Source: Acidobacteriota bacterium (GTDB lineage Bacteria > Acidobacteriota > UBA6911 > RPQK01 > JAJDTT01). Taken from it: DNA of 64,000 bases. The stretch spans positions 4,832,001-4,896,000 of the forward strand of contig OZ253580.1 in assembly GCA_965263035.1 (NCBI GenBank), in the 5' to 3' direction. A program made the translations under genes and the position numbers. Shown here piece after piece: positions 12,352 through 58,563 of the stretch (the stretch's first letter is position 1; the number at the start of each line of letters is the position of its first letter). A model generated the notes under the pieces. That model was not told where the DNA came from and made no database searches. It worked only from the letters and a program-made list of their open reading frames with translations.

Positions 12352-12354
12352 CCT

Positions 12355-17215: not shown

Positions 17216-17227
17216 GAGAAGGGTACA

Positions 17228-17364
17228 GGCGGCTTTCTTGCCGCCCACTGGGACAGGCGGTTTTCTTGCCGCCTGCTCTCCGGTGTTGCTTCGGTAGGCG
17301 GGAAGTGTAGAGGGGGGACTGCCGTCCCCCCTACCCCCCCCGGAACGGCGGCAAGAAAGCCGCC
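17228..17364. repeat. REP-like cluster (3 palindromes plus AGTGTAGAGGGGGGACT..GTCCCCC motif)
   Basis: Palindromes at 17228-45, 17256-73 and 17347-64. Same architecture as 42310-42560. Confidence 0.8.
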
Positions 17365-19141: not shown

Positions 19142-19225
19142 TGCTCTCCGCCTCAGTTGACATCCCCGCGGCCGATTCGGGGTGGCCAACGGCTTACCCG
19201 TTCCGTGTTTACTTAGTGATATCAA

Positions 19226-42567: not shown

Positions 42568-44034
42568 CTACTTCGCCGTGTCGGCAACGGCGAACAAGGC
42601 ATTTCGGTTGGTGATGTAGAGCACTCCGTTGGTCGCCACGGCCGTCGTGTAGACGGAATCTCCCATCTCGTTGACGGCCAGCTCCTTCATCGTCGTGCCG
42701 TGCTCCAGCACCGCCACGTCGCCGTCCTCGTCTCCCAGATAGACCTTGCCGTCCACCAGATAGGGAGACCCCCAGACCGCGGCCAGCATGTCGTATCTCC
42801 AGTGCCTCTTTCCGGTGGCGAGATCCAGGCAGTAGAGAAACCCGGTCAGATCGGCCGCATAGAGCAAGCCGTCCCGAATCGCCACGGTGGACATGCTGCG
42901 GCGGAAGTCCTCGCCACCCACGTGCCAGATCCGTCCCTTCTCGGTAATCTCTCCGGTCTGGGTCGCGTCGATGGAATAGAGGTGACCGGGACCCTCGCCA
43001 TGTTCCGGGTCCTGCCCCACGCTGAGCAGCACCTTGTCCTGGTATAGGACCGGCGTGGAGATGATGTTGTTCCGGGTGCCGCGCCCGCCGAGCTTCCACT
43101 CGGAGACCTTGGGATTGAGGTCGAACTTCCAGATCAACTCTCCACCCTGGGGCTCGTAGGCGTAAGCCCAACCGTCACCCCCGGCAAAAATGACCTGGGG
43201 CCGGCCCTTGACCAGCCCGTATGTGGGTGAGGACCATTGCCCGTGCAGGGTGTTCTCGCCCGGATCGCTCCGCTCCCAGACCAGTTCGCCGGTCTTCTTA
43301 TGCACGGCGATGAACGCGGGCGCGTCCGGCATGGGGAGATCCAGGTGCCCCTCGTCCACGCCGTTGGAGGTGAGCAGGAAGATCAAATCGCCGGCTCCCA
43401 CCGGGGAGGAGGTGGCCAGATTGTGAGGGAAGACCCCCAGCTCCTCGATCATGTCGTACACCCAGACGATGTCCGCGTCCTCGTTCTCCCGGTATTTTTC
43501 GTCCTGAAACGGGCCGTCGTTCTCCCCGTCCAGAAACCCCTCCACGTCGGCGCAGACCAGCTCGGCCCGGTTGCTGACGTAGTAGATCCGGTCCCCGTCC
43601 ACGAAGGGAGAGGAACAGATTCCCTGTTCCGGCCAGTCGTTGACCCGTCCCGTGGGGAGCTTGTCGTGGGTGGCCTGCCACAGCATCTTTCCGGAGGCCT
43701 CGTCCAGACAGACGATCACCCCCTTGTCACCCGTGATTCCGGGCCGGTGATGGGCGTTGTTGTTGGTGCCGATGAAGATCCTTCCATCGGAGATCACGGG
43801 GTTGCCATAGGTCTGGGACCCCAGCGGCATCTTCCAACGGATGTTCTCGCCGCTGGAGACGTTCCATCGGTGGGGCATTCCCTTCTCCTCCGAGACCATG
43901 TTCCGGTCCGGAGTCCCGCCCCACATCTTCCAGTCCCCCGCGTGGACCTGAGGCTGACCCGGCGCGGCAAGAATTGCCGCGGCCAGCAGGATGCACGGAA
44001 CGCGGACGATCCTGGCTCGACTGCTAGTCATCAT
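42568..44034 (-). CDS. PQQ-like beta-propeller protein
   Basis: DW.MWGG..DRN, WK..LG, SSP repeats, GKVYLGDEDG. Confidence 0.9.
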   Translation of the reverse strand: MMTSSRARIVRVPCILLAAAILAAPGQPQVHAGDWKMWGGTPDRNMVSEEKGMPHRWNVSSGENIRWKMPLGSQTYGNPVISDGRIFIGTNNNAHHRPGITGDKGVIVCLDEASGKMLWQATHDKLPTGRVNDWPEQGICSSPFVDGDRIYYVSNRAELVCADVEGFLDGENDGPFQDEKYRENEDADIVWVYDMIEELGVFPHNLATSSPVGAGDLIFLLTSNGVDEGHLDLPMPDAPAFIAVHKKTGELVWERSDPGENTLHGQWSSPTYGLVKGRPQVIFAGGDGWAYAYEPQGGELIWKFDLNPKVSEWKLGGRGTRNNIISTPVLYQDKVLLSVGQDPEHGEGPGHLYSIDATQTGEITEKGRIWHVGGEDFRRSMSTVAIRDGLLYAADLTGFLYCLDLATGKRHWRYDMLAAVWGSPYLVDGKVYLGDEDGDVAVLEHGTTMKELAVNEMGDSVYTTAVATNGVLYITNRNALFAVADTAK

Positions 44035-46252
44035 TCTTCACCACCTTGAAGTTGTCGAAGAGAATCTCGGGACCGTCGCTCTTGGATGTGGTTCCGACGG
44101 AGTAGCCGTAAATGCCGGCGCTGCCTTCCCGGTTCGGATGCGGGTCCAGCACCTCAATGTTCCAAGCCTCGGGCTCCGGTTCCTCCCTGGGCCAGACCTT
44201 CGCTCGGACCCGTGCCTGTCCATCCTCCAGCGACACCGAGAACTTGGCTCGATACCAGACCTCCGGTTCCCAGGGAAATGCAACGTCGTGCCTCAGGCGC
44301 GGCAGCGGGGACCAGGTCTCGATCCGCAGCCGCTTTCTCATGCCCATCATGACGAATCGGTAGCGGCTGTTGATCAGCCCCATGTCCGGCTTGAAGCGTT
44401 TGCGTGCCAGCTTTCCCAGCAGGTCCGCTTCGACCGTATACCCTCCCGGGACGGGGGGAGTGGCATAGGCTCGAAGCCTCATGAAGGGCGGGGAAGGCCG
44501 CGTCTTGGAGGCCAGCTTCTTGAGCACCTTGCCTCCCGCCTCGATGACTTGCGTCTTGGACGCCACGCCTATCCAGCCGGGAGGCACCGAGCCGACCGCC
44601 AGCGACTCGAAGTCCTCGTGGATCGGCAGATTCGGAGCGATCCGAATCCGAGCAGCGGCGCTCAGACCACTGGGGCTCTTGGCGGTCACGAGACCCGCCG
44701 AGAATGCCTGCTCCTTGCCGGCGTTGAAATTGCCGTCCGCGCCGACTGTTCCCGAGACGCCGCTTGCCGACCACTCGACGCTGGCCGGGGAGGGAGTCGA
44801 TCCCACTGAGTCGAATCGAAGCGCCTTCAGCTGGATCTGCTCTCCGGGTCTCAGCGTCGCTTCCGCCGGCACGACCCGAAGGCTGCCCTTGGACCCCGCT
44901 GCCGGGCGCGCCGTCTCTACTGGAGTCGAGGCTAGCTCTTGCGCCTGTACCTGTTGCCCCGCTTTTCCTAGGCAGTAGATGCCGTAGCGGCTCATGAAAT
45001 AGACGCGTCCGCTGACCACGGCGGGAGAGCCGAAGATCTCGTCCACGGTGCCGTCGGGACGCTCGAACACCTCCTTGTCCAGGGACACGCAACGATCGCC
45101 CTCGTCGCGGAGAATGTGGAAGATGCCGTTCTGTTCTCCCACGTAGATCACGCCGTCGCTGGTCACCACGGGCGACCCCTTGCCCACCCGGCCCAGGTTG
45201 TATTCCCAGTGGATGTCACCGCTGGCGGCGTCCATGCAGTAGAGATTGGCGCTGTTGTCCACGGCATAGAGCCGGCCGTTGGCGATGGCGGGCGAGGCAT
45301 ACCCGAAGGTGTAGCCGTCATGGCGCCAGACCACTCCGCTCTCCGTGATGTCCCCCGTCCGGGTTCCGTCGACGCAGACGATGCCTCCCATCCTGGAGGT
45401 GTGCAGGTTCTCTTCGCTGTGAGAGAGGTACGCTCGGTCTCCGTCCACCACCACGGAAGCGTTGAGACCGCGCTTGCTGAGCCGGAGAGTCCAGGCCTTC
45501 TCACCGTTTCGGGCCCGCATTCCATACGCGTTTCCGTCAGCCGTCGCGGCCACCAACATCCGTTGACCGCCCATGACGGCTGTCGCCGGAACGGCGTAGG
45601 TGGTGTCCAGGGGCGTGCCTCCCGGTGCCGACCACCACTGGATGGCGCCGCTCCCTTTGTGGAATGCCACATATCGATGGAGAGGCCGAGCCTGATTCCC
45701 CCAACTGGAATTGAGAAAGCTCACCACGACCCGGTCCTCGTCCAGGATCGGCGTGTGCAGCCGCCCCCCGTAACCGCTGATGCGGCCCAACTCCTCCGTC
45801 ATGGAGACCTTCCAGACCTCGTCGCCGTCACGGCTGAGACAGAAGAACTCTCCCCCGGTGGCGTGAGCGTAGATCCGGCCCGAATCCGGGTCCCCGACCA
45901 GGGCCGTCCATCCCACCCGGTTCTCCACGATGTCGGTATGGAAGACGTTGAATCGCTTCTCCCACAGCTTGCGGCCGGTCCGGGCGTCGAGCGCCACGAT
46001 CCGTTCCCCCCGCGTCGCCCCTTTCCCCACCGGCAGGATGGCGAAGAGCCGGTCGTCCAGGATGATGGGCGTGGTCCTCCCACCCTCGTCGAACTTCCAG
46101 AGAAGCCCATCCCCACCCTGATCCCAGGAGGTGACGGCGGCTGCTTCCGGGGCGGCGCCGTTCTGGTTCGGGCCGCGCCAGTACGGCCAGTCCGCGCCCA
46201 GGGCCGGTTGGATGGTGATCCAAACCAGGGAAAAGACTCCAAGTATTCTCAA
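44024..46252 (-). CDS. PQQ-like beta-propeller protein with Ig-like and lectin-like C-terminal domains
   Basis: ADWPYWRGP, propeller repeats. TTG start with AGGAGG RBS. Confidence 0.88.
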   Translation of the reverse strand: MRILGVFSLVWITIQPALGADWPYWRGPNQNGAAPEAAAVTSWDQGGDGLLWKFDEGGRTTPIILDDRLFAILPVGKGATRGERIVALDARTGRKLWEKRFNVFHTDIVENRVGWTALVGDPDSGRIYAHATGGEFFCLSRDGDEVWKVSMTEELGRISGYGGRLHTPILDEDRVVVSFLNSSWGNQARPLHRYVAFHKGSGAIQWWSAPGGTPLDTTYAVPATAVMGGQRMLVAATADGNAYGMRARNGEKAWTLRLSKRGLNASVVVDGDRAYLSHSEENLHTSRMGGIVCVDGTRTGDITESGVVWRHDGYTFGYASPAIANGRLYAVDNSANLYCMDAASGDIHWEYNLGRVGKGSPVVTSDGVIYVGEQNGIFHILRDEGDRCVSLDKEVFERPDGTVDEIFGSPAVVSGRVYFMSRYGIYCLGKAGQQVQAQELASTPVETARPAAGSKGSLRVVPAEATLRPGEQIQLKALRFDSVGSTPSPASVEWSASGVSGTVGADGNFNAGKEQAFSAGLVTAKSPSGLSAAARIRIAPNLPIHEDFESLAVGSVPPGWIGVASKTQVIEAGGKVLKKLASKTRPSPPFMRLRAYATPPVPGGYTVEADLLGKLARKRFKPDMGLINSRYRFVMMGMRKRLRIETWSPLPRLRHDVAFPWEPEVWYRAKFSVSLEDGQARVRAKVWPREEPEPEAWNIEVLDPHPNREGSAGIYGYSVGTTSKSDGPEILFDNFKVVKNDD

Positions 46253-46809
46253 ACCCGACCTCCTGCGATGAAAAGGTTCACGTGACGCTCATTATCAACG
46301 CAATGCCCACGACGTTTCACATTCTCCCCCTCCCCTGTATGGGTAGCAAGAGAAGAGGGAGCAGAGGGATAAGAGGGATAAGACCCTCTCCTAAGAGAAG
46401 ATTGGCATTTTCCCTCTCCCGCGAAAGCCCGAATATCGTCTTGGGACTGAATCTGCCGCCGAATCTGTCCGCACCGCTGGCGAGTCAGTTTGAAGCGACT
46501 CCCGATCACTGACAGTCTGACACCCTGAGAAGCGAGGCGCCAGATCTTCCTGTCTCGCGGTCTCAGGTCGATGAGCCCGTTCTTGATGCCCGTCTTTTCT
46601 AGTGTCCACCGGCAGTTAGCCCGCATCCGCTGAGTCTCCGGAGTTCGGTCGGTGGGATCCTCATTCCCCACAACATGACGCCGGCAGCCGGCCCGGATGT
46701 TGGTCCACTCAAGGCACGGCTTGCGGTGAACCTTCCACGCCTCCGTGGGTGAAGGTTCAGGCTTCCGGTGGAGTCGGATCTCAAGCAATTCCAACAGCCG
46801 GAAATTCAT
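46249..46809 (-). CDS. Putative DNA-binding protein with sigma-70 region-4-like HTH
   Basis: LRPRDRKIWRLASQGVRLSVIGSRFKLTRQRCGQI matches the sigma4/'.SRQRV.QI' HTH pattern. ATGA overlap with the upstream ORF. True start uncertain. Confidence 0.5.
   Translation of the reverse strand: MNFRLLELLEIRLHRKPEPSPTEAWKVHRKPCLEWTNIRAGCRRHVVGNEDPTDRTPETQRMRANCRWTLEKTGIKNGLIDLRPRDRKIWRLASQGVRLSVIGSRFKLTRQRCGQIRRQIQSQDDIRAFAGEGKCQSSLRRGSYPSYPSAPSSLATHTGEGENVKRRGHCVDNERHVNLFIAGGRV
46291..46305. other. Candidate att site (left)
   Basis: ATTATCAACGCAATG, 13/15 identical to 55605-55619. CATT/AATG inverted arms around an 8-bp spacer. Confidence 0.5.
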
Positions 46810-47171
46810 GCGGCCGCCTCAGAGCTTCGGGAGAGACCCGCCGCCTTAGCCGATGTTTTGACTTCTCGCAACCACCACGGCGACGCACGGAAACGGATCG
46901 CGCAGGATCTCCCGTCCGTAGGATCGTTCAGAGCCTCCACATCCACCAGATCCGGGGTGATCCTGGGCTTTTCGTTATCGTCGAAGGGCAAAGGCTCATT
47001 TTGATCCTTTGCCTCGTAAACCCTACCGGATGCTGGATTCTGATCTCGTCGGTCGCTGCCGGGAGTCTCCCAGTCGGTCGCGGGAGCATTCGACCGAGCC
47101 AGTGTGACCAGCTCGGATTTCAGCTCCGCTTTCTGTGCGGCGGTTCGTCGTGTTCTCTTGTGCTTGCCCAT
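46806..47171 (-). CDS. Hypothetical protein (element-borne)
   Basis: ATG start, co-oriented with and coupled to the next ORF. No motif recognised. Confidence 0.35.
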   Translation of the reverse strand: MGKHKRTRRTAAQKAELKSELVTLARSNAPATDWETPGSDRRDQNPASGRVYEAKDQNEPLPFDDNEKPRITPDLVDVEALNDPTDGRSCAIRFRASPWWLREVKTSAKAAGLSRSSEAAA

Positions 47172-47663
47172 TGTCCCGAATCTAGCCGGGACAAGGATAA
47201 ACTACGCGACTGACGTTCGAGAGAAGGGAAAGGCGCGGGGATCAGGAGGGTTGGCTAGATCCGGTTCCGATGGTCCCGCGCCCGTTGTACGAATCAGGAG
47301 AGATCATTCTCCAGAGTGACAGTGCGTCACCCCGAGAGAGTAGCAGAATCGGCTGACCATAAAAAGCCTAAAAGTGTTCTAAAGTCTCCCCGGTGGAAGC
47401 GCCATGGAGGACCGCTCGGAAGCGGAGGAACGCTTAACGGACTCCTCATGACTAGACCATCCGACAGCACCAAACGTCGGTGAGGAAGGGGACGCGAGAG
47501 TTAGGTTTAAGGTGTCCAAGCCGGATCCAACGGGCGCGCCCCCATAGAGCGTCTATTGTATCAGTAAAAACTGTTGCGATCCCATAGCTGAGAAGCGGAT
47601 GGCGTCTAACTCCCTGTACTGCGTTGGAAGGATTGAACGGACGGGAGCATGGCCCGTTTGGGG

Positions 47664-48767
47664 CTAGTCCCGCTCGGCCTCGACAGAGCCCAACAAGCCG
47701 GTGAGGTTTGCTGCCTCTTCCAAGGATTTGCCCGACTGGACAAGTTTCGAAAACGCTGAAGCTCTTCCGATCAAATCCCCAGCCCATTGGTCGAAGTCGA
47801 GGCGGATCTCCGCTTCCAGCTTCACGCTCAGTTCAAGCTGCACCAGCCGAGCAATGGGTTGGATCAGGTTCAAAAATGTACGCCGGAGCCCTTCTCTTTG
47901 GGCAGTACCCGTCGCGGACGGGTCAAAAATGGATGGACTCACCCCGCAAGCGGCCAAGATCGCGGCCTGGGCATCCCGTCTCAATTCCACGAGCGCCGCC
48001 CCTGGGGAAGGGCCAAGCCGAGAAGGTACGAAATCTTTTCGAGGAGCTGCGCTGCGGCCCTCGCCCCAGCCGCCCGACGTCGTTTCAACCAATATCGATC
48101 TGCCGCGCGCGTTTCGGATATCACCGCTCAAGGCAGCCAACGGATCGGCCGCCGGGTCACCATCCGCATTTTCCCCCGAAGCCGAGTCAGGAACCGCGAG
48201 GAGATTCGCAATCGGCCCGGATACTTCGTCGGCGAGACTTCGTTCAACCTCAGAGTTTAGCTTCGAGGATATGGCGGAGAATTTCAGAGGAGAAACACCC
48301 GCATGAGGGCTGCCTGGGTTGGTGCCCCAGGTGACGTGGACCACTCCCTCGTAACCGACCCGCCGGGTTGTCGTCATCGAGGGACCGGCCAGGTCTACGT
48401 CTACGACCCAACTTTTCTGGTCGTAGCTGCCAGTGAACATCCAGGAAGCAACGGGAAACAACCTCACGATGCCCGCCTCCGAAACGTCGATCATGTGCAT
48501 GGATTCGCCCCGGAGAATGAGGGCCCGCCCGATCTGCGCCAGGACTCCCGGAGTCACGGCCGCACGAATGTAGCCTGGACCGCTCACCTTTGCCCCGGCC
48601 AAACTTCGAGCCAACAGGCCCGCCGCCATCTCCGTCGCCGCGGTCGCAGATGATCCCCCGGTCGAGGCTTGGCTCTGGAGCGCCTGGAGCGCGAGCGCCG
48701 TCACGTCGGCCTGTCGCCGCTCCGCCCGCCGCCATGGGATACCAACTTCCCTCCCCTGGAACTTCAC
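47664..48767 (-). CDS. Phage portal protein (HK97-like)
   Basis: LILRGES, G.SPL, ILAACGVSPSIF, L..IQPIARL.Q.EL..KL. GTGA overlap with the connector gene. Confidence 0.8.
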   Translation of the reverse strand: MKFQGREVGIPWRRAERRQADVTALALQALQSQASTGGSSATAATEMAAGLLARSLAGAKVSGPGYIRAAVTPGVLAQIGRALILRGESMHMIDVSEAGIVRLFPVASWMFTGSYDQKSWVVDVDLAGPSMTTTRRVGYEGVVHVTWGTNPGSPHAGVSPLKFSAISSKLNSEVERSLADEVSGPIANLLAVPDSASGENADGDPAADPLAALSGDIRNARGRSILVETTSGGWGEGRSAAPRKDFVPSRLGPSPGAALVELRRDAQAAILAACGVSPSIFDPSATGTAQREGLRRTFLNLIQPIARLVQLELSVKLEAEIRLDFDQWAGDLIGRASAFSKLVQSGKSLEEAANLTGLLGSVEAERD

Positions 48768-49075
48768 GCTAGAGACCCCCGACGAACTCGCCAGGAAGAG
48801 AGCAACCCTGCTGCTCCAGAATGCGCTAGGGCGCTGGATTCGCCTTTGAAGCGCGTCTTGCGGATCGTGATGCTGCCGGTTTTGATGTTCAGGTTCGGCG
48901 TCATGTCGGCCAGCCAGCCCGCCGCCCTGATTGCGGCTTCGTTCTGGATGGAGTCCGGAGCGTCCGGCGCATATCGCTCTACCAACTCAGTGACCACCGG
49001 CAACAGGCGAGAAGCGACGGCGGGTTTCCCGTTGATTGCGGCCGCTAATTCGGCTTCATTGAGTGTGACTGCCAT
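48764..49075 (-). CDS. Head-tail connector (gp6-like)
   Basis: LL....ELVERY...AP..I..A.IR.AGWL..., SGA..LL..WRV. Size and position fit. Confidence 0.65.
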   Translation of the reverse strand: MAVTLNEAELAAAINGKPAVASRLLPVVTELVERYAPDAPDSIQNEAAIRAAGWLADMTPNLNIKTGSITIRKTRFKGESSALAHSGAAGLLSSWRVRRGSLA

Positions 49076-49115
49076 TCGTTCCCCGCGCTGACTACGGATA
49101 AATTTTCGAAGTGGT

Positions 49116-49598
49116 CTACCAGTAAGGCTTCCATCGAAGTCCCGCCCGTCGCCCCTTCTCCCGGACACTGACGCCGGACCCCGAGTAACTGGGATCGTCT
49201 ACCAAGCCAGCACCGGCCAAAATTGCCTTTTCGATCATTCTCACGTTGCCCTCATAACGCTCACTCTGCGCCCGAAACTCGACACTCAAGCCGGTGTAGA
49301 CGCCAGCCCTGACCATTTCTGCCGCATCGCGGCCGCTGGCAGTATTCAAGAATGGCGCTTCAACGCGGACCTCTTTCCCTTCCACCTTCGGGACGAAGCG
49401 CAAAAGCGCCTGTTTCCGATCGTGCTGAACGTTGAGGATCACCCCGGACTCTGGCCACGACAGCGAATTCTCCAGGAAGATTTCCGCCCGATCGCTCGCC
49501 CGCTCGCCGTACGTCAACAAAACGCCCGCCAGCAAGCCGGGAGATTGCCTTGAGTCGTCTTCCCGAAACTCAACCGCGCAACACCTAATTTCTAGCAT
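49116..49598 (-). CDS. HK97-type prohead protease
   Basis: LNVQHD (His), GLSVEF (Ser), GLVDDPSY.GS.V. Confidence 0.88.
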   Translation of the reverse strand: MLEIRCCAVEFREDDSRQSPGLLAGVLLTYGERASDRAEIFLENSLSWPESGVILNVQHDRKQALLRFVPKVEGKEVRVEAPFLNTASGRDAAEMVRAGVYTGLSVEFRAQSERYEGNVRMIEKAILAGAGLVDDPSYSGSGVSVREKGRRAGLRWKPYW

Positions 49599-49608
49599 TT
49601 CCTACCTA

Positions 49609-49899
49609 CTACGACGGCGTTAGAATTAAGGTGGCCGCGCCCGAATCGACCCGGATCCAAACCGTCTCATTTCCAACTTCAAGAATTCGAGTCGGGACCG
49701 CAGTTCCGCGAGCCGTCGGCCTCCAGGGGTGCCCGGTGACCGTCGGTTCTACCAGGTCGTCGGTTCGTGCCGTGAATACGGTAGCCAGCGGCGATAGGCC
49801 ACGAATGTCCATGGTCCACACGTCGCCCGCTTCAAATCCCGCCGCCAGGGTCAGGTTCAGCCAGCTTGTCGTCAGGTCGATTTGTTGCGTCCAGGCCAT
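49609..49899 (-). CDS. Small beta-rich protein, possible capsid decoration protein
   Basis: TAATG coupling to the upstream gene. Alternating beta-strand pattern ending VWIRVDSGAATLILT. Confidence 0.55.
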   Translation of the reverse strand: MAWTQQIDLTTSWLNLTLAAGFEAGDVWTMDIRGLSPLATVFTARTDDLVEPTVTGHPWRPTARGTAVPTRILEVGNETVWIRVDSGAATLILTPS

Positions 49900-50357
49900 T
49901 ACCTATTCCTGTTGATGCGTTCGTACCATCTACCGATCGCCCGCCCGCATTCTGGATCAAGGATGCCCGAGCTCGCCGACTTCAGCCGCTCGACAACCGT
50001 TGCCTCGCCGGGATCGAGGACGATCTCCTTCGCACCCGGCCCGAGCATTTCCAACAGCCGCCGCCGTCTCGCCGGTGATCCGTCTGAGTTGGTGGCCACG
50101 ATATCGAAACCCATTTCCCGGCCTCGCCGGATTACGTCCTGCCTCAAACGCTCAGTTATCGGCAACAGGGAGAGATCCGCACCGCGCCGGATCGGGAATC
50201 GGCCTGTAGTCGGGTCGCGCCTGGTCCCGGTGATCGAATTAAAGACAGAAGTGAAATCCGCGAGGATCGCGTTCCGACCAGTCGTTCCGAGAGTCGCCAA
50301 GGCAAGTTTGCTCTTCCCGGTCCCGGCTGGCCCTGAGATCAATACGCTACCAGGCAT
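49899..50357 (-). CDS. P-loop NTPase (AAA_33/kinase-like)
   Basis: LISGPAGTGKS Walker A at the N-terminus. GGAGG RBS. Confidence 0.8.
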   Translation of the reverse strand: MPGSVLISGPAGTGKSKLALATLGTTGRNAILADFTSVFNSITGTRRDPTTGRFPIRRGADLSLLPITERLRQDVIRRGREMGFDIVATNSDGSPARRRRLLEMLGPGAKEIVLDPGEATVVERLKSASSGILDPECGRAIGRWYERINRNR

Positions 50358-50383
50358 TTTACGCCAGTGCCTCCGCTCACCCG

Positions 50384-51580
50384 CTAAGAGTGCTGAACCT
50401 GGACGCGCTTCCAGCCGTCAGTCTCGATGACTTTGAACGCGACCAGCAAAATCGCAGTCAAGGAGATGATTCCTGTGGCCTTGCCCGAAATTTCGTCTAC
50501 CAAAAGCTGTATACCCTGCCACACGGGAGCAACCGCGTCCTGCCTGCCGCTGCCGAGACGGACGATGCAATCCTGCTTAGGATTGCTCCCGGTTGTCGCT
50601 GCCGGGACATGCGCCGAGATCCTGACGCCCGCCGTGATGTCCCGGAGACGTTCGATCGCGTTTCTCTCGCCGCTACTCGTGTTTCGATACAAGCTGGCCA
50701 TGCTGACCAAAGTCTCGTTCCCGATCAGAACCCGGAGTTCCGATTCGGAGGAAACCCGCCTGCCCGTAACCAGCCCGTAAGCAAGTCGAGAGAGATACGT
50801 GGTGTGAGTTGCGACCGCTGACGACGATGTGCGGGAAACGTCCGAGACGATCTGAGCAACCATCCGAGAATCGAGCCGTTCCGACAATCCACTCGAAAGC
50901 GCGAGCCTCAAGGCTTGATCCATGTTTGGGAATTTCGCCAAATCTGTCCTGCGGAATGAGAACGCGGCAGAAATTCGACCAGGTTCCAAAAGTTCCGCGC
51001 TGAACGCGCCGTCGGTCTCGGCATGACTTGTCGACGTGGTACTCGGCCCGTGGACCGTCGGCCTTGTCGTCAACACCGGAAAAGACGCCGCCCCCGCCTC
51101 GACCCTGGGAGAAAAAATTCCCATCCAAGCGGAATCTCCGAGAGCGAAAGCCGGTTGCAAGATCGGTGCCTGAGAAGCCGCCGCCGGAGTGTGAGATGTG
51201 GACGCCGGGACAGTCGCCACGGCCCGCTGTTCCAGCATCTCCAGCGGGATCATGTCAGCCGGGAGCTTGAAGTGATCCTGGATCTCCTTCTCCGCTCCGG
51301 AGCTGCTTGAACGCCGCTCGATTACCGCCTGGAAGATGTTTCCGACGTTCGCCCGATCCGACAGCCGCGCCAAAGCGGAATTCTCTCCGCCGTCACTCGG
51401 CTGGATGTCGCCCTCGGCCTTGATCGCGGCCCGGAGCTGGATCTCAGTATTGCCGAGATCCGTTTCGGCCTTCGTGATCGTTTCCTTGTCTTCCGCAGTG
51501 ATCGTTTCCTTGCGAGAAAGATCGAGCAACTTCGAGCGAATTTCCGACGCCCGAATGGTGAGCTTCTGTGCTTGAGTCAA
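50384..51580 (-). CDS. Phage major capsid protein (HK97 fold)
   Basis: GGAGGA plus TTG at 51580. N-terminal coiled-coil delta-like domain, AE...F....L.P.RI.A...F, L...L...L...LD. Located in the head module. Confidence 0.78.
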   Translation of the reverse strand: MTQAQKLTIRASEIRSKLLDLSRKETITAEDKETITKAETDLGNTEIQLRAAIKAEGDIQPSDGGENSALARLSDRANVGNIFQAVIERRSSSSGAEKEIQDHFKLPADMIPLEMLEQRAVATVPASTSHTPAAASQAPILQPAFALGDSAWMGIFSPRVEAGAASFPVLTTRPTVHGPSTTSTSHAETDGAFSAELLEPGRISAAFSFRRTDLAKFPNMDQALRLALSSGLSERLDSRMVAQIVSDVSRTSSSAVATHTTYLSRLAYGLVTGRRVSSESELRVLIGNETLVSMASLYRNTSSGERNAIERLRDITAGVRISAHVPAATTGSNPKQDCIVRLGSGRQDAVAPVWQGIQLLVDEISGKATGIISLTAILLVAFKVIETDGWKRVQVQHS

Positions 51581-51671
51581 CGTGCTGTCCTCCGGTTGAT
51601 TGATCGGTTCCAGGTCGATTTTAGCACAGTTGGCACGGGAATTGCTCATAGAGCAATCATAGTGCCAAATC

Positions 51672-52046
51672 TCAGTCCACCTTCCTCAAATATCGGTTGG
51701 AGGCTGTTTCAGTCTCGACCAGGTGATCGACCAGCCGGCTCCACCGCTTCTCAGCAGCCGTCAACGGCCTGGAATTCTCACGTGCCGTCTTGCGGATGTG
51801 GCAATCCCGGCAGAGCGTTTGCAGGTTGTCCGTATGCTCCCGCCCGCCCTGAGAAAGCGGGATTATGTGATCCACTTCCAGGCGGCCCGCCTTGCCGCAG
51901 TCGATGTTCTGGCAACGGAAGTTGTCTCGATGTAGCACCCGCATCCGAAGCACCCGCCACGCCCGTTGAGAGATCGTGTGCCGCTTCGCCCGCTTCGCCC
52001 GCTTCGCCAGTGGAGAGCCCGGCGTACCGCCCCAATTCGCCATCAT
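51672..52046 (-). CDS. Phage HNH endonuclease (packaging-associated, gp74-like)
   Basis: W..LR..VL.RD..RCQ..C, EVDHIIPL..GG....NLQTLC..CH..KT. Confidence 0.93.
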   Translation of the reverse strand: MMANWGGTPGSPLAKRAKRAKRHTISQRAWRVLRMRVLHRDNFRCQNIDCGKAGRLEVDHIIPLSQGGREHTDNLQTLCRDCHIRKTARENSRPLTAAEKRWSRLVDHLVETETASNRYLRKVD

Positions 52047-53497
52047 GCCAATGCCGTCCTCAATCGGCGGGGCGCCGCGTTCTTCTCGGACCTATGGAAC
52101 ACCCCCGCCACAAGCACCAGGGAAGCCGCCACGTCGTCTCTTCCTCGGTTGGAGCTATCCTTCTTCACCAACCGGACGGACCCTTGGTCGTCCGACTTGA
52201 CCCGAGCCGCGGCGAGCGAAGCCTCGAACAGGGAGTGAGAGCTTTTAGGGCATGACAATGGGCCATCCCTCACAATGCGCCGTAGAGAGTCAATGTCCTC
52301 CGTGGCCTCCGACCACCTGGCAACCCGTGGGACAATCGGAATCCCAGGACCGATAGCATCCTTCAGTGCCTTCAACCGGAACCTGTCACAGACGACAGAC
52401 GCCGGACGCCCCCAGCGCCTCATGACAGCTTGATGTAGATGATGCGGTTCGGGGTCACGCTTTCCAGGTACGGTGACAAGCTGGCCGCCATCCTCGAGGA
52501 GCTGGTAAAGGCCCGCAGGGACATTATCCCGCTGTTCCTGCTTGCGGAGGCTGGGGATACCCGGTGCCACCGCTATGCACTCTGTACGCCCATTCCTCCA
52601 CATCCCGCAGGCCGCGTCCCATGCTCTTCCCCCTCCGATATCAATCGAAACGATCGGGCGACCTACTCGGGGAGGGACCGGTCGGGCCTTCACCATCTCC
52701 CACTCCTCGACCGTGATTAAAGTGACCTCCTCGTCCATGGTCGGGAGGTTCATGCGGTAGCTGAGGAACCGCGACTTCAAGCGGGAGTCCCGCAAAGCCG
52801 CGTCCCTTTCCTCGATCAACTTCGCCAGGAACCGACCCGATATCCGAGTCAGGGGATTGACCCGCTTGATCTCCTCTATGTCGTCCCACAGCTTGCGCTT
52901 CCCCTGGAGCGTCATGACGTAGGTGCTCCCGTGGGAGCCACCGGCCACCATGTCCGGCCACCAGCCTGTCGTAGTGGGAGCCAGAGTTCCGATCAAGATC
53001 AATCGAAGTGGTGAGCCCGGCTTCCCCATTGCCGTCGAAAGGGAGTCGTATAACAACTGACCATTATTCACCTGCCAAGCTCCAGGTTCGTCCCCTACCA
53101 CCAGCGGCACATTGACCAGTCCAAACGACCCCTTCGCGTTGGAGCTCAACACCCGCACCCGCGTGTTCGATTCCACGTGGCGGATGCCGATCCTGTTGAA
53201 GGAATCCAGGAACCTGTAACCGCCCAGCGGTTCCAGATCGGCCCGGACGAAGTTGTAGACGATCCTCGCCTGTTCGAGGCTTGCCGCCGTCAGAACAACC
53301 TCTTTCCCGGGATGGAAAAGGGAGTCGCCCGGAATCATCGCCCGCTTCACCAGGTGAGCCCCGAGGAAAGATTTCCCATTGCCACGAGGGGCACTGAGAC
53401 AGGCCAGGTCAATCCCGTCGGCCGTCGCCCGCTCGATGAACTTCCGCTGAAACGGTTCAAGCCTCATTTTGACCCCCGGAGGCCCTTTTCCATGCAC
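52043..53497 (-). CDS. Terminase large subunit
   Basis: LEPFQ, PRGNGKS (Walker A), AASLEQARIVY, VVGDE (Walker B), NP, SIDIG and DDVAAS nuclease acids. Confidence 0.92.
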   Translation of the reverse strand: MHGKGPPGVKMRLEPFQRKFIERATADGIDLACLSAPRGNGKSFLGAHLVKRAMIPGDSLFHPGKEVVLTAASLEQARIVYNFVRADLEPLGGYRFLDSFNRIGIRHVESNTRVRVLSSNAKGSFGLVNVPLVVGDEPGAWQVNNGQLLYDSLSTAMGKPGSPLRLILIGTLAPTTTGWWPDMVAGGSHGSTYVMTLQGKRKLWDDIEEIKRVNPLTRISGRFLAKLIEERDAALRDSRLKSRFLSYRMNLPTMDEEVTLITVEEWEMVKARPVPPRVGRPIVSIDIGGGRAWDAACGMWRNGRTECIAVAPGIPSLRKQEQRDNVPAGLYQLLEDGGQLVTVPGKRDPEPHHLHQAVMRRWGRPASVVCDRFRLKALKDAIGPGIPIVPRVARWSEATEDIDSLRRIVRDGPLSCPKSSHSLFEASLAAARVKSDDQGSVRLVKKDSSNRGRDDVAASLVLVAGVFHRSEKNAAPRRLRTALA

Positions 53498-53567
53498 GCT
53501 CTAGCCCACCCCACGGATCTGGGCCCCTCCCCCCGGATCGGCGGTGCCATATGCCCGCGCCCCGGCC

Positions 53568-53825
53568 CTACTCAGCAACACGCCAGCGGGCCTGCGCCCG
53601 CTGCTCGGTTCGAACGTCCTCAGCAATCATGGCGTCAGCAATCTCAAAGCAAACCGCCGCAAGCGCAGGGATTCGCGCTTGGAGATCCGCTTCCGGTTGT
53701 TCATGCCCAGTAGTCCAATTCGAGGACGCCAATGCCTGCCCCGCGTACCACTGCCGCAGGTTCATGTTCTTCATGGGCATTCTCGCCCGGTACAACATTT
53801 TTTCATTCAGTTCCTTGTCAGTCAT
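53568..53825 (-). CDS. Small phage protein of the 'M.LRD.FA..A ... A..IADAM' type
   Basis: MNLRQWYAGQAL ... CFEIADAMIAE. GGAGG RBS. Confidence 0.7.
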   Translation of the reverse strand: MTDKELNEKMLYRARMPMKNMNLRQWYAGQALASSNWTTGHEQPEADLQARIPALAAVCFEIADAMIAEDVRTEQRAQARWRVAE

Positions 53826-54019
53826 GATTCCCTCCATTCGTTCCCACTCTGCCAAGTGCACACATAAACACAGTGCACAGAGGATCCCCTATGACTACTG
53901 CAATCCGTTACACTTCTCCGTCCATATATAGAGCGCTCTGAGCACTCCCAGCAGAGCGGCTCGTCAGTGGCACCATGTCTCCGCCTTTCCATGTGATATC
54001 GTTTCTCACTCATCATCAT
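53822..54019 (-). CDS. Small Cys/His-rich hypothetical protein
   Basis: AAGGAGG RBS, CWEC plus further Cys/His. ATGA coupling to the next gene. Confidence 0.5.
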   Translation of the reverse strand: MMMSEKRYHMERRRHGATDEPLCWECSERSIYGRRSVTDCSSHRGSSVHCVYVCTWQSGNEWRES

Positions 54020-54038
54020 TCCTCCTTGTAAGTTCAAC

Positions 54039-54347
54039 TTAGATTGCTCGTTCCTTCCACAGGATCTGCACAGGGACTCGACCCCGACCGATGACGCTCC
54101 GGTAGTCTCCGGCCAGCACGTCGGCGGCTGGCTTAAGGCACCATTTATGAGCTGCCCCAATATGCCCCCACCCCTCCGCGATGAACCTCGTTCCCCGATG
54201 CGGAAGGCGAAGCACCCGCACACAGTCGAAGTCCGGAGCCGAGAGCCCCGACAGAGTGAACAGCTCGAAGTCGAATACGACTCGGTGCGGTTCGCTCCGC
54301 TGTCGATAGATGGCGAATACCATGCTCTGTTCCTCCAAGTGATTCAC
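54039..54347 (-). CDS. Hypothetical protein
   Basis: GTGA overlap with the recombinase stop codon. Protein-like composition. Confidence 0.5.
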   Translation of the reverse strand: MNHLEEQSMVFAIYRQRSEPHRVVFDFELFTLSGLSAPDFDCVRVLRLPHRGTRFIAEGWGHIGAAHKWCLKPAADVLAGDYRSVIGRGRVPVQILWKERAI

Positions 54348-55558
54348 CCTTGCCCATTCTGAGATTCGTGTAGCCGAGAGACAGCCCCGCGTCGAGCATC
54401 AGTTGTCTCTGTGTACCGCAGCACGGTCGCAGTACTCTTCCACCGGCCAGCCCGCGCGACTTCCTGGATTGGCTCGCGGTTTTCGGTGAGGGTCTGCGCC
54501 ATGCCACGCCGGAAAGAGTGACCGCCATACCGTCCCTTGAGCCCGCATTGCTCACACCTGTTCTTGGTGATGTCCCGGATCGTGCGAGGATGCATCCCTG
54601 TATCGGATGGTCGCCCCGAGTGAAACACCTTACGGAACAGCGGTCCCGGACCGATCCGGGAGCTCTCAGTCCAGACCCGCACCTTCATCATGGCTGGCGG
54701 GCTGATAAACAGGGTAGCTCCCTCGCCGTTCTGGTCTGTCTTGGAGCGTCGAATAGTGAGCAGCCCGGACCCGTCGTCTTGGTCTTCCAGGTCCGACACT
54801 TCAAGCGCGGCCAACTCGCCGACCCGCAACAATCCGTCGAATAGCAAGCTGAAGATCGCCGCATCCCGGATGCCCCGGAGCCCGTACTCCCCTTCACAGT
54901 GAGCCACCAGTTTCGCCACGTCCGCCGCCCTCAGTTCCTTCACAGACCCCTTCGCCCGGGACGCTCCTTCCCGTCTGATGCGCTTCATGACCGCCCTACT
55001 CAGCACCCCGTAGGGATCAGGGTCGCCCATGGCCTTGGCCCGGAACACCAAGACCCGAACATCAAGACCGATCGTTCCCGGCGACACGGGAGGATCGGTT
55101 TGCTCGAAGCGATCTTCCAGGTATCGGGAAAGGATGGCGTCCGTGATCTCGGAAGAGCCGGAGCAGTTCACCAAGTGCTTGTCGATGCGGTTGATGATGC
55201 CCAGGTATTGGGTCCGCGTAGACAGCGCCAGACTCGCCAGCGCGACGTCCAGCTTGTCACCAGCGGTCAGCTCGGCCGCCGGCGTGGTCCACCGCTCCGA
55301 AGTCTCCGTGCTGGGCAGACCAGCTTCCGCCCGGTACTCCTCGTAATCGTTCAGAGCTTGCTGCTTCATGCAGAGCAGGGAGTGCATCCTGTAGTCGATC
55401 AGAGCCTGAAACTCCTCGATGGCTTGATCGATTTTCTCGATGTGAGTTTCCATCCGTGCTACTTCGTCGTGCGGGAGAATCTGGATATTGAATTTCACCG
55501 GCTCCCGCTTCTTCTCTGCCATTTCGTTCTCCTGGTTGGGTTGGTGATGATCGGTCAC
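54344..55558 (-). CDS. Cre-like tyrosine recombinase/integrase
   Basis: RDAAI....F...LR..E, SKTDQ.GEG, GHSFRRG.AQ, GRWKS...VLRY. The start may be at MAEKK (~55522). Confidence 0.93.
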   Translation of the reverse strand: MTDHHQPNQENEMAEKKREPVKFNIQILPHDEVARMETHIEKIDQAIEEFQALIDYRMHSLLCMKQQALNDYEEYRAEAGLPSTETSERWTTPAAELTAGDKLDVALASLALSTRTQYLGIINRIDKHLVNCSGSSEITDAILSRYLEDRFEQTDPPVSPGTIGLDVRVLVFRAKAMGDPDPYGVLSRAVMKRIRREGASRAKGSVKELRAADVAKLVAHCEGEYGLRGIRDAAIFSLLFDGLLRVGELAALEVSDLEDQDDGSGLLTIRRSKTDQNGEGATLFISPPAMMKVRVWTESSRIGPGPLFRKVFHSGRPSDTGMHPRTIRDITKNRCEQCGLKGRYGGHSFRRGMAQTLTENREPIQEVARAGRWKSTATVLRYTETTDARRGAVSRLHESQNGQG

Positions 55559-55598
55559 CAGGAGAGCTTACCAGAGTTGGGGGATAATGGGTAGTGTC

Positions 55599-55624
55599 CC
55601 GTCTATTGTCAACGGAATGGACGG
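55599..55624. other. Candidate att site (right), lox-like palindrome
   Basis: CCGTCTATT-GTCAACGG-AATGGACGG: 8/9 inverted arms around an 8-bp spacer, just upstream of the recombinase. Confidence 0.55.
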
Positions 55625-55663
55625 TGTCTTCAAAACTCATATAGGCCGGTAGACGGTAAGCCG

Positions 55664-57517
55664 TCACCGGGCGACCAGGGGCAGGGTGACATGTGACGGC
55701 CGGCTCCGGTCATGGAACACGGTGTTGCGGGCGATGGTCCAACTCCGTTCCCGGCCCAGCGGCTCCCCGGTGTTGGGATTGACGTCGAACCGCGGGAAGT
55801 TGCTGGAGGAGACGTCCAGGCGAATCCGGTGTCCCTTTTGGAAGCGGTTGGCCGTGGGGTAGAGGACGATGGTGATGGACGCCACCTCTCCCGGCTCCAA
55901 GAGCCGTGCCGTGCCGCCGCTCTCGCGGTAGCGGACCCTGAGAATGCTGTCGCTCAGGTTCAGCGCGTAGCCTAGGGGATAGTCCGGGCCGGGGGGATAG
56001 ACGTCGATGAGCTTGGCGGTGAAGTCGGTGTCCCGTGCGGAGGAGGCGACCCAGAGCTTGACCTCCATGGGCCCTGCGATTTCCAGATCCTGTTCCAGCG
56101 GCGGCGTCTCGAACACCAGGACGTCGGGACGGGAGCCCAGGGGCAGATAGGGCGGCGTGCATCCGAAGAAGTCCGGACCCTCGGTCTGGTCAAACCCCCC
56201 GGACGGAGTCACGGCCTCGATCATGGTCGGTGTGGGGACCGATTCCGGCCGAACTCCCTGGGGCCAGGGCCGAACGTAGCTCAGGGAGGAGAAGTTCCCT
56301 CCGATGGTGGGGACCGGACGCCGCGGATCGTAGCGATAGCTGGTGGAGGATTCCTTCCGGTCGGAGGGGCGGGGCGACAGGGTCCGGTCCGGATGCAGGT
56401 AATAGGGCGTGGGCGCCGCCTGCGACAGCGGCCAGCCGTCTCCCTCGCGCCAATGCCCGCCGTGGTCCAGATTCCCCAAGCGGGTCCTGCGCCCGCTGCC
56501 GCCGCCCATGAGGAACCATCGGATGGCCGGCATGCGGGCCGCGTCCGTCTCCCGGCCCTTGAGCCACTGGTCGAACCAGTCCAGATGGAGGCGGTCCAGA
56601 CTCGCCAGTGGCGCTTCCGGTCCCAGGTCCGCGTCTCCGGACAGTTGTTCCTCGGTCGTGTAGGTGCCGTGCACCCAGGGACCCATGACGACCTTCACCG
56701 GCCCCGTCTTGGCACTCCTCAGAGCCTGGAAAGCCTCCAGCGTGGCGCGGGTGTAGGAGTCGTACCAGCCTCCGATCAGGAGAATGGGGACATCCGAGTG
56801 CTGCTCCAGGAACTCCTCGATGGCGAATCCGGGTTGTTTCCAGTACTCGTCGTAATCCCCGTGCCGGACCAGCTCCAGGGCCCAGCGCTCGTAACCGGGA
56901 AGTAACGAGAGCTGGCTCTGTCCCCTTCGCAGCGGCAGCCGCCGGAGCCAATGCCGAAAATCGGGACCCGACGACAGCCCCTCCTGCAACCAGGGGAGAG
57001 CGTTGGTTTCGGCGTTCCCGTGATTGACGGAGTGCCAGAAGGCCCAAGCCAGAAAACGGAGCTCGTAGGCCCCACCCTGGCGGACCGAGCTGGTATAGGC
57101 GTTCCAGCCGCCCATGACGGGGATCATGCAGGCGAGATGAGGAGGGTTCTGCGTGGCCAGGGTGCTCTGGGTCCAGGCCACGTAGGAGGTGCCGTAGGTC
57201 CCCACCTTCCCGTCGCACCACTCCTGCCGGGCCGTCCACTCCACGGCGTCGTAACCGTCGAAGGGTTCGTTGACCAGAAAGACCAGATCTCCCTCGGAGG
57301 AATGGCAGCCCCGGCAGTCCTGGACAACCACCGCATAGCCATGCTCGGCGTAGCGCTCGGCCCGCCGCATCCGCTCCAGTTCCTGCTTGCCGTAGGGAGT
57401 CCGTTCCAGGAGGGCAGGGAAGGGCCCCGAGGCGTCGGCGGGCCGGTAGACGTCGGTTCCCAGGCGGACTCCGTCCCGCATCGTGACCATGACGTTTCGA
57501 TCGATCCTCAGGGCCAT
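55664..57517 (-). CDS. CocE/NonD family hydrolase
   Basis: MRDGVRL.TDVYRP, RTPYGK, GTSY, GGWYD, GPWVH, SSSNFPRFD.NPNTG. Confidence 0.95.
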   Translation of the reverse strand: MALRIDRNVMVTMRDGVRLGTDVYRPADASGPFPALLERTPYGKQELERMRRAERYAEHGYAVVVQDCRGCHSSEGDLVFLVNEPFDGYDAVEWTARQEWCDGKVGTYGTSYVAWTQSTLATQNPPHLACMIPVMGGWNAYTSSVRQGGAYELRFLAWAFWHSVNHGNAETNALPWLQEGLSSGPDFRHWLRRLPLRRGQSQLSLLPGYERWALELVRHGDYDEYWKQPGFAIEEFLEQHSDVPILLIGGWYDSYTRATLEAFQALRSAKTGPVKVVMGPWVHGTYTTEEQLSGDADLGPEAPLASLDRLHLDWFDQWLKGRETDAARMPAIRWFLMGGGSGRRTRLGNLDHGGHWREGDGWPLSQAAPTPYYLHPDRTLSPRPSDRKESSTSYRYDPRRPVPTIGGNFSSLSYVRPWPQGVRPESVPTPTMIEAVTPSGGFDQTEGPDFFGCTPPYLPLGSRPDVLVFETPPLEQDLEIAGPMEVKLWVASSARDTDFTAKLIDVYPPGPDYPLGYALNLSDSILRVRYRESGGTARLLEPGEVASITIVLYPTANRFQKGHRIRLDVSSSNFPRFDVNPNTGEPLGRERSWTIARNTVFHDRSRPSHVTLPLVAR

Positions 57518-57525
57518 GGGCGACC

Positions 57526-58563
57526 TCAATCCAGCAGTCTGTCCGGCTCCACCATGGGAATGGACCGGGAGCGGACGGCCCGCTCCACCGATTCCAGGTC
57601 CTTGAAACCGTGGCCCGTGACGATGCAGACGGCTCGGCCGGAAGGGGGCGCCGACCCCGCCGATCGGGCCTTCAGGTAGCCGGCGTAGGCGGTGGCCCCG
57701 GCGGGCTCGCAGTAGACGCCCCGGCTGAACAGCGCCTCCTGAGCCGAGAAGACTTCCTGGTCGCTCACCGGCTGTCCGCTACCGCCCGTCTCCAGGACCG
57801 CGTCCAGGGCCAGTTGGGCGTCGATGACGTTGGGGACCTGAAGACCCGAGATGGCCGAGGTGCACTCCACCTCCACCGCTAGGAATTCCCCCCGGTCCAA
57901 GGGGCCGGTGACGGTAGCGCAGCCTCGGGGCTGCACGGCGTGGATCCGGGGCACCCGGGAGATCCTGCCCTCGCGGAAATAGTCGGTGAACCCCCGGGCG
58001 ATAGCCGTCAGCAAACCTCCTCCGCCGATGGGAACGAAGACGTCGTCGACCTCGCCCAACTCGTCTGCGATCTCGTAGGCGATGCTCTTGACCCCGTCCA
58101 TCCCCTCGGGGCTGTAGGTGAAGGCGGAGATCTGGAGCGCGGCGCCTCTCGCCGGCGCCTCCCGCTGCAGGCGTACCATCACGTCGCGGCTGGCCGCCGG
58201 GTCCAGCCCGAATCCCCGGACCCGTTTCAAGACCGCCCCGTACGCGAGCATCTGAAGCGCCTTCCCTGCCGGTGTGGTCTCCACCAGAAAGATGTGGCAG
58301 GGGATCCCGGCTCGGGCGCAGTAGGCGGCCAGGGCCGAGCCGGTATTGCCCGAGGAAGTGGCCAGACAGGAGCGAAGACCCTCTTCCCGCATCCAGGAGA
58401 CGGCGCAACTGGCGAATCGATCCTTGTAGGAACCGGAGGGGTTGAGCTGCTCCATCTTCAGGAACGGTCCGTCATCCAATTGGACCAGGGGTGTTGCCCC
58501 CTCGCCCAGGGTGAGGACATGCCGGGTATCGCGAACCGGAAGGTATCGATGGTAATTCCACAT
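57526..58563 (-). CDS. Threonine synthase-like PLP-dependent enzyme
   Basis: LGEGATPL, NPSGSYKDR, SSGNTG, PIGGGGL, EPA, TGHGFKD. The real gene is only the C-terminal part of the 834-aa ORF. Confidence 0.9.
   Translation of the reverse strand: MWNYHRYLPVRDTRHVLTLGEGATPLVQLDDGPFLKMEQLNPSGSYKDRFASCAVSWMREEGLRSCLATSSGNTGSALAAYCARAGIPCHIFLVETTPAGKALQMLAYGAVLKRVRGFGLDPAASRDVMVRLQREAPARGAALQISAFTYSPEGMDGVKSIAYEIADELGEVDDVFVPIGGGGLLTAIARGFTDYFREGRISRVPRIHAVQPRGCATVTGPLDRGEFLAVEVECTSAISGLQVPNVIDAQLALDAVLETGGSGQPVSDQEVFSAQEALFSRGVYCEPAGATAYAGYLKARSAGSAPPSGRAVCIVTGHGFKDLESVERAVRSRSIPMVEPDRLLD

Follow-up and report, generated by a model that had tools for sequence, protein, structure and literature searches.

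A compact integrative island with its own head and packaging genes in an acidobacterial chromosome, probably a tail-less phage satellite

We analysed a window of 64,000 nucleotides from the chromosome of an Acidobacteriota bacterium (assembly GCA_965263035.1, contig OZ253580.1, positions 4,832,001 to 4,896,000), in which a 9,314 bp island, taken from attL to attR (window positions 46291-55617), lies on the minus strand between two host genes, with every gene between them on that strand. An earlier interpretation of the same DNA, made from the letters and their open reading frames (ORFs) and called here the sequence-only reading, had described a compact integrated element at 46291..55619, bounds that agree almost exactly with the two attachment sites given below. 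The guanine-plus-cytosine (GC) content of the island is 0.59-0.61, compared with 0.64-0.68 in the flanks. From 5' to 3' the island encodes a tyrosine integrase, three small ORFs, the large terminase subunit (TerL), an HNH endonuclease, a capsid protein of the HK97 fold, an AAA_33-like P-loop protein, a protein of 96 amino acids (aa), an S78 prohead protease, a gp6-like adaptor, a portal protein and two further ORFs. We consider the island to be, with fair probability, a phage satellite that integrates, forms its own capsids and has no tail, and that represents a compact lineage not described before. Its attachment sites, integrase, and head and packaging region are as follows.

55605..55617, no strand: attR, reading ATTGTCAACGGAA; left arm element-side, right arm host-side, placed from the empty sites of congeners
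54344..55558, minus strand: tyrosine integrase, 404 aa (PF00589, E 1.8e-15; phrog_1, E 1.6e-21)
52043..53497, minus strand: TerL, large terminase subunit, 484 aa (phrog_9, E 1.2e-33)
51672..52046, minus strand: packaging-associated HNH endonuclease, 124 aa, overlapping the TerL stop codon by 4 nt (PF01844, E 1.3e-13; phrog_589, E 1.9e-22)
50384..51649, minus strand: major capsid protein of the HK97 fold, 421 aa (AlphaFold model with Foldseek; PF05065 matches of homologues)
49899..50357, minus strand: small P-loop protein of AAA_33 (kinase-like) type, 152 aa (Walker A GPAGTGKS; weak AAA_16/AAA_33 matches)
49609..49899, minus strand: 96 aa protein specific to this element (no family match; no relative in other loci)
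49116..49598, minus strand: prohead serine protease S78, 160 aa (PF04586, E 6.4e-5, 23.6 bits, above the cut-off of 21; phrog_80, E 8.6e-12)
48764..49075, minus strand: gp6-like head-to-tail adaptor, ~103 aa from a conserved MAVT start that was set by alignment (the ORF is open to 49168, giving 103-134 aa)
47664..48767, minus strand: portal protein of HK97/gene transfer agent (GTA) type, 367 aa (PF04860, E 6.2e-7, 29.3 bits, below the 39.1 cut-off)
46291..46303, no strand: attL, reading ATTATCAACGCAA; left arm host-side, right arm element-side, placed from the empty sites of congeners

No frame is interrupted among the 15 island ORFs of the ORF list, and six adjacent gene pairs overlap by 1-4 nt, counted from their coordinates, which bears out the earlier description of an intact, largely coupled run of genes in this order on a single strand.

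The tyrosine integrase put the island into an intergenic site of 13 bp. When a 17 kb query was compared with 30 relatives, 8 of them from the same genus, the two flanks abutted in seven of the eight same-genus genomes (the two matches overlapping by 9-17 bp) and were 178 bp apart in the eighth. The empty site of these congeners, attB, reads ATTATCAACGGAA; attL and attR are reciprocal hybrids of attB and an attP reading ATTGTCAACGCAA, and are therefore consistent with a crossover within TCAACG between the two. The sites became apparent only through the empty sites of the congeners and are absent from the 20 repeat families shown by a repeat search. No tRNA was found in the window, and Rfam gave no match across 45500-56500. 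Four sequencing runs were examined as contigs, a form in which depth cannot reveal induction; no RNA run with the island was among those listed. Near-identical contigs from two other studies cover the flanks but break off at 46300 and resume at 55605/55614, and the island contigs have depths by bin of 0.6-32 against a flank depth of 33, and of 0-27 against 113 (roughly 2-fold to several-hundred-fold lower), which indicates that the island is carried by only part of those populations.

We next considered the head and packaging proteins. The host genome encodes five further full-length relatives of TerL, three at 45-48% identity and two at 22-28%. The N-terminus of the neighbouring HNH protein contains a 9 bp tandem repeat (51977-52008, TCGCCCGCT units) encoding KRA repeats, and contigs of the two other studies vary there by a single 9 bp unit. 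The 421 aa capsid protein itself has no Pfam match, and because its profile found nothing among the sequences in the PDB, a fold search was used: its AlphaFold model (predicted local distance difference test, pLDDT, 83.7) matches HK97-fold capsids by Foldseek (8gta, E 5e-13; also HK97 1ohg and 6tb9 from RcGTA, the GTA of Rhodobacter capsulatus), and PF05065 is matched by 19 of the 49 aligned capsid homologues. The N-terminal third of the model is helical and resembles a delta or scaffold domain, and the true start codon possibly lies ~23 codons downstream of the start of the 421 aa ORF. The P-loop family shows a weak AAA_33 match in 9 of 13 members and falls in AAA_33 Atlas clusters that are mostly viral; it occurs in 4 of 7 copies of the module within the host genome and at 12 of the 38 loci outside it that are described below. 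For the adjacent 96 aa protein, the nearest Atlas clusters are unnamed viral ones (0.93), a lead only.

At the portal end of the module, the AlphaFold model of the adaptor (pLDDT 79) was compared with 48,161 chains using VIA-align, which placed HK97 gp6 (3jvo) first, at a middling Z of 7.3 (root-mean-square deviation 3.5 over 82 aligned residues). The list is nonetheless consistent, since phage neck or adaptor chains, including those of the RcGTA and SaPI1 necks, make up most of the top 25 entries; Foldseek with the same model found nothing. The portal assignment is supported at the level of the family, as PF04860 is matched by 14 of its 16 members and the family profile matches the solved portals 9i8c and 6te8/6tba, that of RcGTA included, at E ~1e-6. 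Overall, the element carries a complete head and packaging set: TerL and HNH for packaging, an HK97-fold capsid that bears a delta-like domain, and, with them, the S78 protease, the portal and the gp6-like adaptor.

Other functions expected of a phage were sought among the 15 ORFs using Pfam and PHROGs, which yielded no tail, lysis, holin, primase/helicase, repressor or small-terminase match, as the sequence-only reading had also noted; six ORFs are unannotated, so that absence is unproven. The 85 aa ORF directly upstream of TerL sits where a small terminase would be and has no small-terminase match in either database. Likewise, none of the five small ORFs matches PF05930/HTH_17 or an excisionase PHROG, the families through which an AlpA-type regulator was sought.

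To place the island among its relatives, we examined 38 loci outside the host genome, comprising 31 species-representative genomes, 4 viral contigs and 3 metagenome contigs; the metagenome scan had yielded five loci, from which a duplicate of the contig of locus L040 and a 1 kb fragment were left out, and one genome flagged as unpublished (G016) was counted in tallies only. In 28 of the 38, the capsid gene has TerL upstream and the portal downstream, all on the same strand and within a span of 3.8-7.2 kb; the other ten are mostly cut by contig ends, and TerL is inverted in L036. According to record titles, the hosts belong to Acidobacteriota, Chloroflexota, Alphaproteobacteria, Gemmatimonadota, Verrucomicrobiota, Binatia, Thermodesulfobacteriota, Syntrophobacterales and Acidimicrobiia. 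The capsid family comprises 860 representative clusters at E values up to 1e-30, with record titles that cover at least nine major lineages, mostly of uncultured bacteria. Identical ends were found in three of the nine whole contigs tested (9091, 8353 and 9509 bp), which are thus the size of the element in the window.

Between integrase and TerL, the relatives encode P4-type integrases (Arm-DNA-bind_3 with Phage_int_M), AlpA/excisionase-type regulators, D5/VapE/AAA_25 primase-helicases and HTH_36 initiators. AlpA-type regulators were recognised in L010, L028 and L034 by Pfam and in L013, L016 and L025 by PHROGs, and primases in L011, L016, L017, L022, L027, L033, L041 and L042. The sequence-only reading had set the element apart from phage-inducible chromosomal islands of the capsid-forming kind (cf-PICIs) by its lack of primase and AlpA genes, a distinction that holds for the copy in the window but fails for the family. 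Between adaptor and portal, or past the portal, relatives carry a head closure protein (Hc1), a head completion protein (PF05521), a further adaptor or a Neck1-type protein. No credible match to a tail tube, tape measure, sheath, baseplate or fibre was found by PHROGs in 75 ORFs up to 4 kb downstream of the portals, and no tail family was matched by Pfam in 88 ORFs up to 4 kb upstream of TerL. Two weak PHROG matches labelled as tail proteins were judged negligible: a 213 aa protein of L009 (distal tail protein, E 3e-4) and a 109 aa protein of L021 (phrog_1756, E 1.8e-4, no passing stretch).

Several relatives depart from this plan. The adaptor domain is fused to C-terminal extensions in L043:3263-5563, L020:3470-5272, L028:12135-13589 and L053:2779-3759, forming proteins of 326-766 aa to which neither Pfam nor PHROGs assigned a family, and shorter extensions with repeated beta-rich motifs occur in L017, L027 and L026. 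Locus L013, an alphaproteobacterial metagenome-assembled genome, holds two modules in tandem (8184-13931 and 15530-20948), whose TerL proteins are 90% identical and portals 78%; the identity of their capsids, at only 37% against 90% for TerL, indicates that the capsid gene was exchanged between elements. Locus L041 (8353 bp, identical ends) encodes an AAA_25 primase/helicase, has no integrase, places HNH ahead of TerL and has no recognised adaptor; it may represent an episomal or lytic form.

The host genome itself (6.2 Mb, one contig, G000) contains several copies. Profile searches for the family genes revealed six intact modules, one decayed copy and seven isolated portal fragments. Intact modules follow the order TerL-(HNH)-capsid-(P-loop)-protease-(adaptor)-portal, with TerL inverted in one of them, and the copies are 25-46% identical to the one in the window for TerL, 23-32% for the capsid and 24-41% for the portal. 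In the decayed copy (G000:C1:16989-22674) the capsid gene is split between three frames and the portal occurs as two pieces; the protease is cut short, and TerL is both short and inverted. The seven lone portal fragments (G000:C1 at ~143.6k, 167.4k, 2070.6k, 2094.2k, 2899.3k, 5228.6k and 5648.4k) have no other module genes nearby and are apparently scars of older copies. Two transposase-like ORFs of 470 aa (G000:C1:5145448-5146860 and 1791088-1792500), identical over at least the first 60 residues, adjoin copy E4 in one case and lie between the integrase and TerL of copy E7 in the other, which looks like insertion of an insertion sequence into the elements.

Selection was estimated from ratios of non-synonymous to synonymous substitution rates (dN/dS), which were 0.11-0.28 in the seven of 15 pairs with unsaturated dS, covering TerL, capsid, P-loop protein, protease, adaptor and portal; the other eight pairs were excluded (dS >1 or undefined). 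Within the lineage of the element itself, one portal variant differs by 20 substitutions, of which only three residue changes result, and the substitutions in capsid variants are synonymous in three of three cases. These substitution patterns indicate that the core genes are under purifying selection. Identities within pairs of relatives are mosaic. Among 50,697 deposited phages, tblastn found no match to the capsid, portal or adaptor, and its TerL matches, mostly to HK97-like coliphages, had at most 38% coverage at ~30% identity.

Together, these results describe a mobile family that recurs in many uncultured bacterial groups and is held under purifying selection. The distinct, recurrent family of ~9 kb elements that the sequence-only reading had proposed is therefore supported by a non-canonical gene order found at different loci and in many lineages, by self-closing contigs and by purifying selection. 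The results also leave little room for the idea that the island is the decaying remnant of a full-length HK97-like prophage after loss of its tail, lysis and replication genes. This copy does have no recognisable replication or regulatory genes, and the decayed copy and seven lone portal fragments in the same genome show that decay occurs. All 15 frames are nevertheless intact, and the compact order recurs in 28 of the 38 loci outside the host genome, where integrases or host genes flank it. The att sites are also precise, and this very lineage is under purifying selection. The sequence-only reading had allowed that the closest homologues might be full-length prophages with tails; no tail-bearing relative appeared in the scanned flanks, the deposited phages offered only the partial TerL matches given above, and the site that is empty in congeners, with its hybrid att sequences, speaks against a deletion remnant and for a discrete element that integrated recently. 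We regard such an origin as very improbable.

The distribution of the family bears on a second alternative. Four of eight congeners have the capsid family, whereas a search of 22 further relatives gave no match, and a sample of 301 genomes from the host phylum contained it in only three, all from the host's genus. The island might instead belong to a GTA-like particle system that the host has domesticated and retains for packaging and releasing DNA; a GTA-like particle had also been suggested by the sequence-only reading. Head genes without tail genes, several copies in one genome, and the presence of the RcGTA portal among the best solved relatives and of the RcGTA capsid and adaptor chains among the structural matches could all be read in this way. 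However, a host-kept system sits poorly with an integrase and hybrid att sites, with a site that is empty in seven of eight congeners, with a patchy, strain-specific distribution and with an island GC content below that of the host. The low identity between copies within the genome (only 23-46% for TerL, capsid and portal) and the mosaic pattern among relatives fit repeated invasion, not vertical descent, and self-closing contigs of 8.4-9.5 kb point to a unit that packages itself. Domestication thus appears a distant prospect, and this part of the earlier proposal did not hold up.

A third alternative concerns the source of tails. Searches with the chosen families brought up no tail gene, whether in the island, in relatives' flanks or in the host genome; in the last of these, which is 97% complete, PF10145, PF04984, PF04865 and PF05709 had no match, so that any helper phage would come from outside or be too divergent to see. 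The element could be pictured as a self-sufficient, helper-independent minimal virus or tail-less transfer particle, a 'head-only' element of 8-9.5 kb. Its DNA-filled heads would reach cells without a dedicated helper in the same cell, by joining free tails of unrelated phages outside, by using adaptor-fused extensions as a minimal tail substitute or by some other entry route. In favour of this idea, the four Pfam tail families are unmatched despite six intact modules, the family spans many phyla yet is confined to one genus in the 301-genome sample, adaptors in L053, L028, L020 and L043 are fused to extensions of 326-766 aa of unassigned fold, and L041 closes on itself and encodes a primase/helicase but no integrase. 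On the other hand, no lysis or receptor-binding gene was recognised, the adaptor of this copy is a bare domain of ~103 aa, and gp6-like adaptors, Hc1 and Neck1 are parts that join heads to tails. No tailed phage is known to have a genome as small as 9 kb. A further point in favour is that tail-less cf-PICI capsids are reported to acquire tails from other species (10.1101/2025.02.11.637232). On balance we find helper independence unlikely, though less so than decay or domestication.

We therefore return to the capsid-forming, tail-less satellite as the favoured interpretation. Given a family with genes for adaptors and necks but no tail genes found, and by analogy with cf-PICIs, tails would probably be borrowed from a helper phage. 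Upon induction, the element would excise and be copied by host or helper functions or by its own unannotated small ORFs. TerL and HNH would then cut unit-length DNA at a cos-type site, and this DNA would be pumped through the portal into small proheads made by the element and matured by its protease. The adaptor would seal the portal and present a docking surface, while tails, and probably lysis too, would be supplied by an unrelated helper phage as in cf-PICIs. As a satellite, the element would therefore work like a cf-PICI; it is not filed as a member of that family because AlpA and primase, two of the features that define cf-PICIs, were not found in this copy.

Several observations weigh against the satellite interpretation. 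No helper phage is known for the element, and this copy, in which neither AlpA nor a primase, a small terminase or a second neck protein could be recognised, may be less autonomous than its relatives, or defective. In runs with the complete island, the island and its flanks lie on one contig at equal depth with no sign of induction, and neither an attL-attR junction nor a closed-circle contig was present among the joints listed; the circular junctions and raised coverage that the sequence-only reading had suggested looking for thus did not come to light in these contigs. The identical ends of relatives' contigs could stem from tandem copies, which do exist (L013). The Z of 7.3 for the adaptor lies in a range that the tool warns can be common for helical proteins. 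Finally, the flank ORFs searched for tail genes were filtered (by GC pattern, a length of at least 80-90 aa and absence of overlap), possibly dropping real genes, and the two weak matches in L009 and L021, negligible as we judge them, are to tail proteins.

The remaining features of the island and its surroundings comprise the small ORFs, a non-coding gap and the two flanking host genes.

55664-57529: S15 X-Pro dipeptidyl peptidase, host gene flanking the island
54039..54347, minus strand: 102 aa ORF, overlapping the integrase stop codon by 4 nt; coding-type GC pattern; no family match
53822..54019, minus strand: 65 aa Cys-rich ORF, preceded by AAGGAGG; no family match
53568..53825, minus strand: 85 aa ORF directly upstream of TerL, with an ATGA overlap with the upstream ORF; coding GC pattern; no family match
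47172..47663, no strand: 492 bp non-coding gap beyond the portal gene, with no credible ORF
46806..47171, minus strand: 121 aa ORF; no family match; no relative in the fetched loci
46249..46809, minus strand: 186 aa ORF, overlapping the upstream ORF by 4 nt; weak coding GC pattern; no Pfam or PHROG match
44024-46252: PQQ/BamB-like beta-propeller protein, host gene flanking the island

Neither the 96 aa protein nor any of the five small ORFs has a relative in the loci examined or a Pfam or PHROG family; the 85 aa ORF has one unnamed homologue elsewhere at 73% identity. Homologues of the flanking S15 peptidase, at ~55-62% identity, bear mixed names (Binatia, Chloroflexota, SAR202) and do not point to one host phylum. 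The final codons of the 186 aa ORF cross attL into host DNA. In and around the gap, a 111 aa ORF (47452-47787) shows a non-coding GC pattern, and an inverted repeat is present (47270-47287 / 47528-47545); on inference, the gap is a candidate site for cos, an origin or regulation. Scans for promoters and terminators across the island region gave counts no higher than in shuffled sequence. One promoter-like site at this shuffle level (55584-55612, minus strand; TTGACA, a 17 nt spacer and CATTAT) lies upstream of the integrase gene with its -35 hexamer inside the attR core, and its context would change upon integration or excision.

Capsid-forming satellites have so far come mainly from Proteobacteria and Firmicutes, plus a few actinobacterial isolates, and the island would represent the same strategy in a separate and much smaller architecture. 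If this is true, tail piracy would extend to large parts of the bacterial tree, the lower size limit for an element that builds and fills its own HK97 head would be ~8-9 kb, and a compact head and packaging module of six to eight genes would be available for structural and synthetic work. The source of the tails would also become a question, since the genome has six intact copies yet matched none of four Pfam tail families. If the helper-independent possibility were true instead, it would amount to a fourth way of being a relative of tailed phages, and would explain both the six copies without matched tail families and the spread over many phyla despite rarity in the sample of the host phylum.

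Finally, we compared the element with known systems. Like the HK97 head module (gp3-gp7, HNH gp74), it combines an HK97-fold capsid with a delta-like N-terminus, an S78 protease, an HK97-family portal, a gp6-like adaptor and an HNH partner of the terminase, but the order is permuted, tail, lysis and replication genes are missing, and the capsid, portal and adaptor have no tblastn match in the 50,697 phages. With RcGTA it shares a small HK97-type head, and the portal, capsid and adaptor of RcGTA are among the solved relatives of its proteins. RcGTA, however, has tail genes, no integrase or att sites and vertical inheritance, whereas the element described here is a strain-specific insertion with an integrase and att sites, in which no tail genes were found.

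VEIMEs, PICMIs and EPIPs are similarly small (5-10 kb), integrative or virion-borne, helper-dependent and largely metagenomic. VEIMEs are described as encoding no major capsid gene (PMC9618062), PICMIs as minimalist islands said to be without capsid-remodelling genes, and EPIPs as carrying a tape-measure gene and a serine integrase (PMC12822802). No description of the architecture reported here was found in the literature, taken without supplements.

The closest counterparts are cf-PICIs (prototype EcCIEDL933), described as tail-less islands with an integrase that supply TerL, HNH, capsid, protease, portal and connector themselves (10.1101/2022.09.08.507074, PMC10085698). The island is likewise integrative, encodes each of these head and packaging components, its connector being of the head-tail type, and is without tail genes, and at the level of the family the left arm carries integrase, AlpA and primase as in cf-PICIs. 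As for cf-PICIs, small heads that take helper tails are expected. In contrast to cf-PICIs, no small terminase was recognised, and this copy is without recognisable AlpA, primase and second neck protein. The gene order also differs (TerL-HNH-capsid-(AAA_33)-protease-adaptor-(Hc1)-portal, with the portal last). A set of 969 cf-PICIs, mainly from Proteobacteria and Firmicutes, has a median size of 14 kb (PMC10085698); at ~8-9.5 kb the elements described here are about two thirds as large, and their hosts are uncultured lineages outside Proteobacteria and Firmicutes.

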